Shown here piece by piece: positions 46,890-50,190 of a stretch of DNA of 64,000 nucleotides. How positions within the stretch are numbered: the first letter of the stretch is position 1; each line of letters starts with the position of its first letter. The stretch is taken from assembly GCF_056746865.1 (NCBI RefSeq), contig NZ_CM163382.1. One strand, given 5' to 3'. A model generated the notes under the pieces. That model saw nothing but the letters and a program-made list of their open reading frames with translations, did no database searches and was not told the origin of the DNA. Position numbers and translations under genes: made by a program.

Positions 46890-48869
46890 ATGGGCAGACC
46901 GTTAAAAACTTTATTCAAACGTGAGCATAGTGAAGAAATCAGTAACCCGAGCGATAACCGCGCGTTTTCGCAGGTGGCGGAAGTCTATTTGTCACGCCGC
47001 CGTCTGTTACAGGCAGGCACGGTCGCCGGTGCCGCGGCAGCGTTCCCATTTCTGCTGAAACAGGAAAACGCGCTGGCGAAAGTGGTCTCCAAAGCAAGCG
47101 GTAACCTCGGCAAAGCGACGACGCTCGGTTTCACCAGCCTGCCGGTTTCCACGGAAGATACCGTTATCGTGCCGGAAGGATACATCGCGAAGCCCTTCTA
47201 CAAATGGGGCGACGCCACCGGGATTGCCGGAAATCTGCCGGTTTTTAAAACCGACGGTAGCAACACCACGGAAGAACAGGCGGCGCAGGCCGGGATGCAC
47301 CACGACGGCATGGCGTGGTTTAGCCTGCCGCAGGGCGGGAACAGCTCCGATCACGGCCTGCTTGCCATAAACCATGAATACATCGATAACGGTCTACTGT
47401 TTAAAGATGGCGATGCCAACTGGAGCGCCGATAAAGCTCTTAAAGGCCAGAACGCGATGGGCGTGTCGGTCATTGAAGTAAAAAAAGTGCCCCTGGGCTG
47501 GGAAGTGGTGCGCCCGTCATCGTTCGCACGCCGCATCACCGTTAACACGCCGATGAAAATCACCGGTCCGGCGCTGCATAACCCACTGATGCAAACAGTT
47601 GACGATCCGAAAGGCGAAATCATTCTCGGCACCATGCAGAACTGTGCCAACGGATTTACGCCGTGGGGCACCTATCTGACGTGTGAAGAGAACTGGTCCG
47701 ATATTTTCGTAAAAAAAGCAGAGATGAACCCGCTGGAAAAACGTTACGGTATCAGCGGGAGCGACGACTCTTACCGCTGGAACGAAGTGGATAAAAGGTT
47801 CAGCGTCGACGCCACGCCGAACGAGCCGAACCGCTTCGGCTGGGTGGTGGAAATCGATCCATACGATCCGCATTCAGTGCCGCGCAAGCACACCGCGCTT
47901 GGTCGCATCAAACACGAAGGCGCAGCGGTGACAATTGCCCCGGATAACCGCGTTGTGGTCTATATGGGCGATGACCAGAAATTCGAATACATATATAAAT
48001 TTGTCTCGGAAGGAAAATTCAACCCGCAGGATCGCAAAGCCAACATGCACCTGCTGGAAAAAGGCACTCTGTACGTGGCGAAATTTAACGACGACGGCAA
48101 AGGCGAGTGGCTACCGCTGGTGTTCGGACAAAATGGGCTCGACGCCAGTAAAGGGTTTGAAAACCAGGGCGACCTGTTGATTAAAACCCGTCTGGCGGCA
48201 GACGCCGTGGGGGCCACTAAAATGGACCGCCCGGAGTGGATTGCGGTCGATCCATATCACGCCGGCAGCGTTTACTGCACGCTCACCAACAACAGCGATC
48301 GCGGTAAGGAAGGAAAAGCGCCAGTGGATGCGGCCAACCCGCGCGCCAAAAACGTTTACGGCCACATCATTCACTGGTTGGAGCATAACGGTGACCCGAC
48401 CGCGCTGCAGTTTGCCTGGGATATTCTTGTGATGGGCGGTCGCACCGATACAGACAAACTGGAAACCAAAGGCAGCATGAAGGGTGCGGAATTCGGCAGC
48501 GCCGATGGCCTGAGCTTTGATCACCGCGGCGTGCTATGGATCCAGACCGACGTGTCGTCATCAACCATAAATATTAAAGATTACAAAGGCATGGGCAACA
48601 ACCAGATGGTGGCGACGATCCCCGGTACCAATGAGTTCCGCCGCTTCCTGACCGGCCCGCGCGGCTGCGAAATCACCGGCATCGCGTTCACTCCGGATAA
48701 CCGGACGCTGTTTATTAACATCCAGCACCCTGGCGAGCCAAGCGAAGGGCTTAGCGATCCGCAGCATCCGACGGCAGTATCAAGCTGGCCTGACGGCGAT
48801 AAGGCTGGTCGTCCGCGCTCCTCAACTGTCGTTATCGTAAAAGCCGACGGCGGCATAATCGGCACCTGA
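46890..48869 (+). CDS. PhoX-like Tat-secreted phosphatase (DUF839 family)
   Basis: 659 aa; twin-arginine signal SRRRLLQAGTVAGAAAA; TPWGTYLTCEEN-type motif; family assignment from memory. Confidence 0.6.
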   Translation: MGRPLKTLFKREHSEEISNPSDNRAFSQVAEVYLSRRRLLQAGTVAGAAAAFPFLLKQENALAKVVSKASGNLGKATTLGFTSLPVSTEDTVIVPEGYIAKPFYKWGDATGIAGNLPVFKTDGSNTTEEQAAQAGMHHDGMAWFSLPQGGNSSDHGLLAINHEYIDNGLLFKDGDANWSADKALKGQNAMGVSVIEVKKVPLGWEVVRPSSFARRITVNTPMKITGPALHNPLMQTVDDPKGEIILGTMQNCANGFTPWGTYLTCEENWSDIFVKKAEMNPLEKRYGISGSDDSYRWNEVDKRFSVDATPNEPNRFGWVVEIDPYDPHSVPRKHTALGRIKHEGAAVTIAPDNRVVVYMGDDQKFEYIYKFVSEGKFNPQDRKANMHLLEKGTLYVAKFNDDGKGEWLPLVFGQNGLDASKGFENQGDLLIKTRLAADAVGATKMDRPEWIAVDPYHAGSVYCTLTNNSDRGKEGKAPVDAANPRAKNVYGHIIHWLEHNGDPTALQFAWDILVMGGRTDTDKLETKGSMKGAEFGSADGLSFDHRGVLWIQTDVSSSTINIKDYKGMGNNQMVATIPGTNEFRRFLTGPRGCEITGIAFTPDNRTLFINIQHPGEPSEGLSDPQHPTAVSSWPDGDKAGRPRSSTVVIVKADGGIIGT

Positions 48870-48919
48870 TTCTGTTTCATCCGTCATTAAAAACGCAGGC
48901 GCGGTTAGCCTGTGTTTTT

Positions 48920-49520
48920 ATGGTAAAGTCCTGTCAGTCCGCGCGCTGGCTTCCTTCAACGCTTTGTCGTAATTTTTGTCAGTCTGCTCGTAGTCTGGAA
49001 TGCCCGGAATTCCTCAACGCTATGCCACTGTTCAGGCGCGGTGTGATGAGAGTGGCGTCGCTGGGTTATGCCTTTCCAGGCACGATTCTGGCGATTGGTT
49101 TTCTGACTCCCTAAATGACCGCTGGCTGGCGGAACTACTGGATTACAGGGGGTTACCTTTAATGTCTGTCGGTGTCCTGTTGGTGATTTGCTGTACGATG
49201 CGATTTCAGGCAATAGCCATCGGCGCACTTGATGTCCGGCTGGGACGTATACCAGAGTCACTGGAACAAGCCTCACGTCTGCTGGGAGAAAATGGTACAG
49301 GAACTTTTGTTCGGGTTCACTTTCCTGTGTTGCTCTGGTGAGCAGTGCCCTGCTGGTTTTCACTGATGCGATGAAAGAACTGCCAGTAACACTTCTTTAT
49401 GCTGAAGCAGCCCGTGGAACTTTTGAAGAAGGGGCCATCTCTGCTTTAATGATTGTTCTTGCAGGGACATTTCCGGTTATTTTGTTTGTTCCAGCTGAAA
49501 GACTGAAATCAGAGGATTGA
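48920..49520 (+). pseudogene. Ferric-type ABC transporter permease (AfuB/FbpB-like) C-terminal remnant, frameshifted
   Basis: ORFs 48920-49114, 49000-49341 and 49338-49520 carry permease segments in three frames. Confidence 0.4.
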
Positions 49521-50190
49521 TTATGTCTGAAGAAACAGCTTTATGTATTAATGATGTCCATGTTGTTTATCCCAATAGCCCATATCCTGTATTGCGGGGC
49601 GGGGGGTATGTCAGTCTGTAAAGGTGAACTGGCATGTCTGCTTGGTACATCAGGTTGTGGAAAAACAACAGTACTACGTGCTGTAGCTGGTTTTGAGCGC
49701 CTGAACAAGGGGAAATTTTTGTATCACAGCATTGTGTGGCCAGCGCAGATATGCATTTTCCGCCGGAGAAATGTCATGTCGGTATAGTCTTTCAGGAATA
49801 TGCGCTCTTTCCCCACCTTACAGTTTCACAAAACGTGGCTTTGGTCTGAGAAGACTGCCGAGAGATGTACAGCGAACCAGAGTTACAGAACTGTTGAAAA
49901 TGGTGGATTTATTCCACTATTCAGACAGCTATCCTCATGAACTTTCAGGAGGTCAGCAGCAACGTATTGCCCTTGCAAGGTCACTGGTTCCAAATCCAGA
50001 TATCCTGTTGCTAGATGAACCATTTTCCAGCTTGGATAAAAAACAAGGGTAGGACTGAGCCGTGAAGTTCGTGATATTTTGCATGAGGCAGGGCAGACAG
50101 CACTTTTAGTCACTTACAGTGAACACGAAGCATATTTGATGGGGGCTCGTATTAGATATGTTAAAAACGGACAATATTGGGAAGGGTAAC
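49512..50190 (+). pseudogene. ABC transporter ATP-binding protein (AfuC/FbpC-like), multiple frameshifts
   Basis: Walker A LLGTSGCGKTT (49551-49787) and signature [13 protein letters not shown] with Walker [12 protein letters not shown] (49732-50052) in different frames. Confidence 0.45.

Follow-up and report, generated by a model that had tools for sequence, protein, structure and literature searches.

An intact phoX gene beside a decayed transporter

We analyzed a stretch of 64,000 nucleotides from contig NZ_CM163382.1 of NCBI RefSeq assembly GCF_056746865.1 (the window), concentrating on a phoX gene and the remains of an ATP-binding cassette (ABC) transporter at positions 46890 to 50190. 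An earlier description made from the letters and their open reading frames (the sequence-only reading) had placed here a 659-residue PhoX/DUF839-like protein with a twin-arginine translocation (Tat) signal, followed directly by frameshifted permease and ATPase genes. The phoX coding sequence occupies 46890-48869 on the plus strand, begins with ATG, and is an intact open reading frame of 659 amino acids with a ribosome-binding site, AGGA, upstream at 46879-46882. On the same strand lie two pseudogenes, the C-terminal third of an FbpB-type double-domain permease (48970-49520) and an FbpC-type short ATPase (49523-50189). The setting is an E. coli island of insertion sequence (IS) debris that also holds iha and remnants of an integrative and conjugative element.

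The profile search that the sequence-only reading had proposed placed the 659-residue protein in the PhoX family (Pfam PF05787; COG3211) with a score of 553.2 bits against a gathering threshold of 24, and the match covered profile positions 2-515 of 515. A structural counterpart was Pseudomonas fluorescens PhoX 3ZWU (561.6 bits; query residues 70-658 against chain residues 2-585). To assess conservation, we aligned the query with P. fluorescens PhoX and 81 full-length representatives of 50%-identity clusters that are 35-54% identical to it. In this 83-sequence alignment the query and P. fluorescens PhoX are approximately 49% identical from end to end, and 48 of the 49 columns conserved in at least 95% of the sequences are kept in the query, among them R36, R37, C252, E266, E267, N268, H342, E343, D361 and D362. 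Every strongly conserved polar column of the family is retained. A loss of PhoX active-site residues, the outcome that would have spoken against the assignment, was not found in these columns. Residues C252, E343 and D362 are equivalent to C179, E273 and D292 of the P. fluorescens protein, which are putative ligands of the cofactor.

The gene shows constraint at the protein level. Among E. coli chromosomal, E. coli plasmid and Cronobacter-like copies, the ratio of non-synonymous to synonymous substitution rates (dN/dS) was 0.065-0.137. Two E. coli alleles differ at nine synonymous and three non-synonymous codons, the latter all in variable loop columns. These comparisons confirmed, at the level of sequence, that 46890-48869 encodes an intact PhoX alkaline phosphatase.

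Structures are available for PhoX of P. fluorescens Pf0-1 (PDB 3ZWU, 4A9V and 4ALF; Yong et al. 2014, Science 345:1170, as cited in PMC11098088). The query shares with that protein the full-length alignment, the length class and the twin-arginine signal, as well as C179, E193/E194/N195, H272, E273, D291/D292 and other family-invariant columns (P. fluorescens numbering). It differs in having A538 in place of the near-invariant Pro478 and a longer N-terminal region before the twin arginines. It also differs in lying on an E. coli island instead of being a core gene.

Tat signal and putative phosphate-starvation promoter

The predicted Tat signal peptide comprises residues 1-63 (46890-47078, plus strand). 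It has the motif S-R36-R37-R-L-L, a hydrophobic stretch, and A-L-A63 followed by K. The NCBIfam model TIGR01409 matched residues 34-52/53 with a score of 17.8, just above its cutoff of 16.7, and the Pfam Tat-signal model PF10518 gave a weak match at residues 34-53. The twin arginines are conserved across the PhoX family (R36 in 79 of 83 sequences, R37 in 82 of 83), and the crystallised mature chain of the P. fluorescens protein aligns from query residue 70 onward. Cleavage of the signal is predicted near residue 63.

Upstream of phoX we identified a Pho-box-like PhoB site, TTGTTATATTTCCGTAAC, at 46803-46820 on the plus strand, consisting of two 7-bp repeats with an 11-bp period and carrying a T-to-C change at position 13. 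A -10-like hexamer, TAGACT (46831-46836), begins exactly 10 bp past the box. The sequence-only reading had suggested a ttgtcat half-site at about 46800-46830 as a weak Pho box. It was right about the region, in which the actual two-repeat box lies on the coding strand, and wrong about the motif: a pattern search found ttgtcat only on the minus strand, at 46796-46802, where the corresponding sequences from plasmid pRM14721 and from a Cronobacter-like chromosomal locus differ.

The box in the window has mismatches to the consensus CTGTCATAWAWCTGTCAY at 5 of 18 positions. Because a match with five or fewer mismatches is reached by approximately 10% of shuffled 220-bp upstream regions, the significance of the site rests on its conservation among orthologues and not on the motif. 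In about 40 enterobacterial orthologues the layout nTGTTATAAAWnTGTAAY, 10 bp, TAnnnT recurs between -70 and -87 relative to the start codon, in promoters whose flanks are otherwise unalignable. Within the box, 37 of 37 enterobacterial orthologues agree at 11 of the 18 positions. The phoX genes of Neisseriaceae have more canonical Pho boxes.

As a positive control we used the phoA promoter of E. coli K-12, in which CTGTCATAAAGTTGTCAC at -80 is followed after 10 bp by TATAGT. The phoX and phoA promoters share an 18-bp box with two 7-bp direct repeats, a 10-bp interval to the -10 hexamer, and about 80 bp to the start codon. They differ in the half-sites, which in phoX are TGTTA and GTAA preceded by the T-to-C change instead of TGTCA, and in the number of consensus mismatches (five, against two for phoA). 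The putative PhoB-dependent architecture of the phoX promoter thus matches the Pho-regulon layout, and phoX is probably inducible by phosphate starvation. The variant Pho box of enterobacterial phoX genes is a useful observation about a regulatory site and leaves current understanding unchanged.

A cassette shared with other genomic contexts

Comparison with other loci delimited a phoX cassette of 2.18 kb (46790-48969, plus strand) that contains the promoter, the gene and a terminator and is common to several genomic contexts. Window positions 46790-48965 are 91.9% identical by blastn to the Cronobacter-like chromosomal locus (L004), where the encoded protein is 96% identical, and positions 46806-48969 are 93.4% identical to plasmid pRM14721 (L002). 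Beyond these limits, all three contexts differ, and no transporter lies beside the diverged phoX copy (93.6%) of pRM14721. The closest source of phoX, which appears to have been acquired horizontally, is a Cronobacter-like enterobacterial chromosome.

The unit ends in an intrinsic-terminator-like hairpin, CAGGCGCGGTTAGCCTG, followed by a U-run (48896-48920, plus strand). Its predicted folding energy is -19.2 kcal/mol (z = -3.3); the terminator scan lists the hairpin on the opposite strand. The hairpin is conserved in pRM14721 and in the Cronobacter-like locus, and it lies between phoX and the point at which the transporter sequence begins.

At that point, 48969/48970, a rearrangement has joined the phoX 3' flank to permease codon ~359. 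The plasmid and Cronobacter-like sequences remain homologous to each other beyond 48969. Every chromosomal copy in E. coli, among them an allele 99.4% identical to that of the window, switches into permease sequence at the same base. We therefore interpret the junction as a single derived event. The GC content is about 56% in phoX, against about 45% in the transporter remnant. When we surveyed the neighbors of phoX in other species, an orthologue of this Fbp-type transporter was near none of 83 PhoX loci; native neighbors vary by clade and are of MetNIQ, GH15 or ZnuA type. As judged from these comparisons, the adjacency of phoX and the transporter is a rearrangement scar, neither an operon nor a functional unit.

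Chromosomal enterobacterial phoX genes encode proteins 96% (Cronobacter-like), 81% (Franconibacter) and 76-78% (Klebsiella/Enterobacter) identical to that of the window. They share with it the Pho box, 10-bp interval and -10 hexamer at -70 to -87, and a stand-alone arrangement with variable neighbors. The E. coli gene differs from them in being accessory, in lying amid IS debris, in being fused at its 3' side to a transporter pseudogene, and in the T-to-C change of its box.

In Klebsiella pneumoniae (L007/L008 6560-14115), phoX directly follows a phage-type integrase gene, and on its 3' side are a ZnuA/ABC-3 metal transporter and then a 416-residue protein without a Pfam match. This type of phoX block occurred in five of the 83 loci (Klebsiella, Phytobacter and Superficieibacter). 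A general link between PhoX and metal transporters was considered and rejected, the neighbors being clade-specific. On the 5' side of the cassette in the window, approximately 500 bp between the IS remnants and phoX (46258-46790) had no match in the compared loci, and the open reading frames at 46258-46702 gave no Pfam matches.

The transporter remnant

Both transporter genes are broken, as the sequence-only reading had stated. By tblastn and three-frame translation, the C-terminal ~195 residues of the permease (~359/379 to 554 of 562) are spread over three frames at 48963/49016-49490, with 71-82% amino acid identity (tblastn) to intact Buttiauxella and E. coli permeases. ATPase residues 3-219 of 231 were recovered by tblastn with intact relatives over 49532-50180. 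The Walker A, signature and Walker B motifs are recognizable, but reading through the gene requires at least four frame changes. RefSeq likewise annotates both as pseudogenes, an iron ABC transporter permease (frameshifted, missing its N-terminus) and an ABC transporter ATP-binding protein (frameshifted). Read in this way, the fragments are dead, without function of their own and without a functional link to phoX.

Intact orthologous operons encode a substrate-binding protein (345-349 residues), a fused double permease (562 residues) and an ATPase (231 residues in Buttiauxella). The remnant is 72-79% identical at the amino acid level to the Buttiauxella operon. The closest intact ATPases, of 225-233 residues, are those of Buttiauxella (72-74% identity) and of an E. 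coli paralogue (68%). The gene for the substrate-binding protein and about 64% of the permease have been lost from the window, and tblastn found no homologue of the substrate-binding protein within window positions 45000-56000. One candidate for it, a fragment at 53550-53918, was rejected as a UgpB fragment belonging to a separate orphan gene.

The sequence-only reading had called the transporter afuBC/fbpBC-like, and only the second half of that label is upheld. The orthologous Buttiauxella substrate-binding protein matched Bordetella pertussis FbpA (1Y9U) with 504 bits, as well as many other iron-binding proteins (FutA, HitA, SfuA and YfuA). No AfuA-named entry was among its structure matches, so the afu label is unsupported and the system does not resemble the AfuABC sugar-phosphate importer. 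With FbpABC importers (B. pertussis FbpA, 1Y9U; Mannheimia FbpA, 1Q35) the intact orthologues share the gene order of substrate-binding protein, double permease and ATPase, whereas the window has lost the first gene and most of the second, and what is left is frameshifted. The ATPases of this subgroup (225-233 residues) also lack the C-terminal domain of the ~350-residue FbpC/AfuC proteins, and their alignment to the ferric ATPase model is confined to ~13-215 of its 351 positions. A ferric, Fbp-type identity of the remnant is thus supported indirectly.

By megablast, no intact version of this transporter was found in E. coli at the DNA level, the only relative there being the 68%-identical paralogue elsewhere. 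That paralogue is common and intact (L011/L012 5264-8678), with a substrate-binding protein of 349 residues, a permease of 562 and an ATPase of 225. It sits in another island, where IS66 and the gene for a small GTPase adjoin it. The sequence of its ATPase (68% identity to the stitched remnant) occurs in 3855 indexed blocks of the contig collection.

Distribution and existing annotation

Many complete E. coli chromosomes contain a 4.1-kb stretch with the locus at 100% identity. With a coverage threshold of 80%, phoX was present in 98 of 5426 complete E. coli genomes, and the full transporter remnant in 54. These counts are consistent with phoX being an accessory gene. The gene is not known to occur in E. 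coli K-12. Many of the phoX-bearing strains among the matches listed came from poultry or human samples.

Another trace of phoX is a 112-bp relic, approximately 91% identical to window positions 47752-47863; about 375 E. coli records have nothing else of the gene, with 184 of the places on plasmids. The relic lies beside IS1 and IS3 elements (L003 5000-5140) and carries the annotation of an 'alkaline phosphatase' pseudogene. The abundance of these relics suggests that phoX-bearing DNA was once widespread and has mostly been lost.

RefSeq annotates the intact gene product as 'PhoX family protein' (WP_000533456.1), and a search of the available literature on E. coli PhoX by name and accession found nothing relevant. 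The gene and the remnants map to well-known families and to existing RefSeq annotation. The main practical value of the analysis is correct annotation: the phosphatase is real and intact, and the transporter fragments appear dead and unrelated to phoX. If PhoX is active, approximately 2% of complete E. coli genomes have an Fe/Ca alkaline phosphatase in addition to the zinc-dependent PhoA, which would be a modest metabolic trait.

Interpretation of the locus

We consider it very likely that phoX is a self-contained, acquired cassette and that the sequence downstream is the dead, unlinked 3' end of an FbpABC-type transporter. During phosphate starvation, PhoB would bind the box at 46803-46820 and bring RNA polymerase to the -10 hexamer that lies 10 bp further on, giving a monocistronic phoX transcript that ends at the hairpin at 48896-48920. 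The 659-residue precursor would fold and load its Fe3+/Ca2+ cofactor in the cytoplasm, be exported by the Tat system through its S-R-R-R-L-L signal, and be cleaved near residue 63. In the periplasm, PhoX would then hydrolyze phosphomonoesters and release phosphate as a zinc-independent alternative to PhoA. One rearrangement would have joined the transporter to the phoX 3' flank, removing the gene for the substrate-binding protein and about two-thirds of the permease. The sequence comparisons show the identity, intactness and conservation of phoX, the limits of its cassette, the junction, the decay of the transporter and the conserved promoter layout; we infer the Fe3+/Ca2+-dependent phosphomonoesterase activity, the cofactor, Tat export and PhoB dependence.

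Several observations weigh against this account. The Pho box of the window diverges from the E. coli consensus, with TGTTA and TGTAA in place of TGTCA and five mismatches in all. Position 13 of the box, C in the sub-lineage to which the window belongs, is T in 37 of 37 orthologues, pRM14721, the Cronobacter-like locus and E. coli CS18F. The second repeat is therefore polymorphic within E. coli (CCGTAAC in the window lineage, the ancestral CTGTAAC in CS18F, L095), and a change at an otherwise invariant position may weaken PhoB-dependent induction in the window sub-lineage. The equivalent change in the first repeat (CCGTTAT) is natural in several species, so that one such change need not abolish PhoB binding. 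In the protein, the sole deviating column is A538, where 81 of the 83 family members have proline, adjoining the conserved D539. Alanine at this position is also found in 11 of 120 close orthologues, including those of the Cronobacter-like lineage, Buttiauxella and Atlantibacter, and we therefore regard it as a lineage variant and not a lesion. For the transporter, the ferric assignment is made by orthology to an operon elsewhere, and the best NCBIfam models for the ATPase and permease, far below cutoff, were those for putative 2-aminoethylphosphonate transport. This doubt, which arose with both the stitched window subunits and the intact Buttiauxella ones, was dropped because the orthologous substrate-binding protein matches FbpA structures at 504 bits.

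The change in the Pho box would also fit a different account, in which phoX is a silent relic awaiting decay in an IS graveyard and contributes nothing to the cell. Each neighbor of phoX is a pseudogene or an IS, the approximately 375 records with only the 112-bp piece show that loss is common, and two genes found near phoX in a related strain (below) are either destroyed in the window (ugpB') or absent from it (a phytase-like esterase). We regard this as unlikely. The open reading frame is intact in 98 genomes, the differences between the E. coli alleles are predominantly synonymous, with the non-synonymous ones confined to variable loops, and none of the -10 hexamer, the ribosome-binding site and the terminator is damaged. 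Natural CCGTTAT first repeats also indicate that the single T-to-C change need not silence the promoter.

The juxtaposition of a phosphatase and an iron transporter raises the further idea that they formerly worked together, the transporter importing iron for the Fe3+ cofactor of PhoX, and that their adjacency is what remains of an operon. PMC5454538 and PMC12594817 describe PhoX as an iron enzyme, the transporter orthologue has an FbpA ferric-binding protein, and a metal ABC transporter of ZnuA type lies downstream of Klebsiella-type phoX. The sequence-only reading had made no claim of a functional link, and the evidence points against one: the orthologous Fbp neighbor is missing from all 83 PhoX loci, the ZnuA-type neighbor is limited to one clade (5 of 83), a terminator separates phoX from the transporter, and the junction cuts the permease at codon ~359 and removes the gene for the substrate-binding protein. 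Beyond the same point, the Cronobacter-like and plasmid contexts carry other sequence, and the GC content drops from ~56% to ~45% across it. A former pair is, on this evidence, very improbable. Hardly credible is the idea that the protein is a PhoX-fold (DUF839) paralogue with some activity other than that of a phosphomonoesterase. PF05787 is broad and is reported in PMC12594817 to include paralogues, and the same source describes an A. mediterranea PhoX whose mono- and diesterase activities were weak and whose sulfatase activity was detectable. Against this stand the ~49% end-to-end identity to the characterized and crystallized P. fluorescens enzyme, the retention of all strongly conserved polar columns, and a Pho-box promoter architecture like that of phoA.

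Neighboring phosphate genes and insertion sequences

Strain HCM-24C-3 (L093) matches window positions 28537-50745 at 99.9% and shows the locus in a less damaged state. There, the transporter remnant is followed by an intact orphan ugpB gene (ugpB'; L093 28810-30126), an IS110 pseudogene, and a gene for a phytase-like esterase. The product of ugpB' matched the UgpB equivalog model with 932 bits; the gene has Pho boxes and no ugpAEC genes beside it. The esterase (L093 31621-32964) is predicted to be secreted and belongs to PF13449, 'esterase-like activity of phytase' (207 bits). Its promoter has its own Pho box, 10-bp interval and -10 hexamer, at -81. Members of the same esterase family lie near phoX on pRM14721 (L002 14255-15598, minus strand, convergent with phoX) and in a Lautropia metagenome-assembled genome (L061 2110-3396, minus strand).

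In the window, the esterase gene is absent and ugpB' is broken. A stub of the ugpB' promoter with Pho boxes (50598-50745, plus strand; CTGTCAT at 50669), 99.3% identical to L093 28600-28748, is severed by an IS66-family element (50746-53273, plus strand) inserted 62 bp upstream of ugpB'. We defined the boundaries of this element, and the 8-bp target duplication GCATGATA, by comparison with the uninterrupted HCM-24C-3 locus. Its plus-strand open reading frames tnpA (50827-51252), tnpB (51249-51599) and tnpC (51630-53243) look complete. Beyond it, the ugpB' pseudogene (53348-53864, plus strand) retains residues 1-43 and ~192-328 on either side of a 456-bp internal deletion, is truncated at its 3' end, and gave a partial match of 212 bits to the NCBIfam UgpB equivalog. 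The IS66 insertion is recent relative to HCM-24C-3.

The Pho-box-type promoters of ugpB' and the esterase gene suggest that, together with phoX, they formed a small Pho-regulated islet for scavenging organophosphates, of which only phoX is intact in the window. A bolder proposal, which we think unlikely, is that a mobile PhoB-controlled phoX-ugpB-esterase islet, each gene with its own Pho-box promoter, moves among avian and extraintestinal E. coli on islands and plasmids and provides a zinc-independent Fe/Ca phosphatase route. If so, this route could matter where the host withholds zinc, and the T-to-C polymorphism of the Pho box would mark lineages that are tuning or losing their phosphate response.

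Other parts of the island differ among the strains compared. At ~43359-44880 the window has the group II intron reverse transcriptase/maturase gene ltrA, annotated with an internal stop in a matching strain; this gene is missing from strain 1517k, where IS5 occupies the equivalent position. Approximately 2.4 kb at ~26086-28536 has no collinear counterpart in HCM-24C-3. Mapping to HCM-24C-3 also placed part of iha (siderophore receptor/adhesin) and the core gene amiC among IS fragments at ~19538-20897 and ~31984-33243, both on the minus strand.

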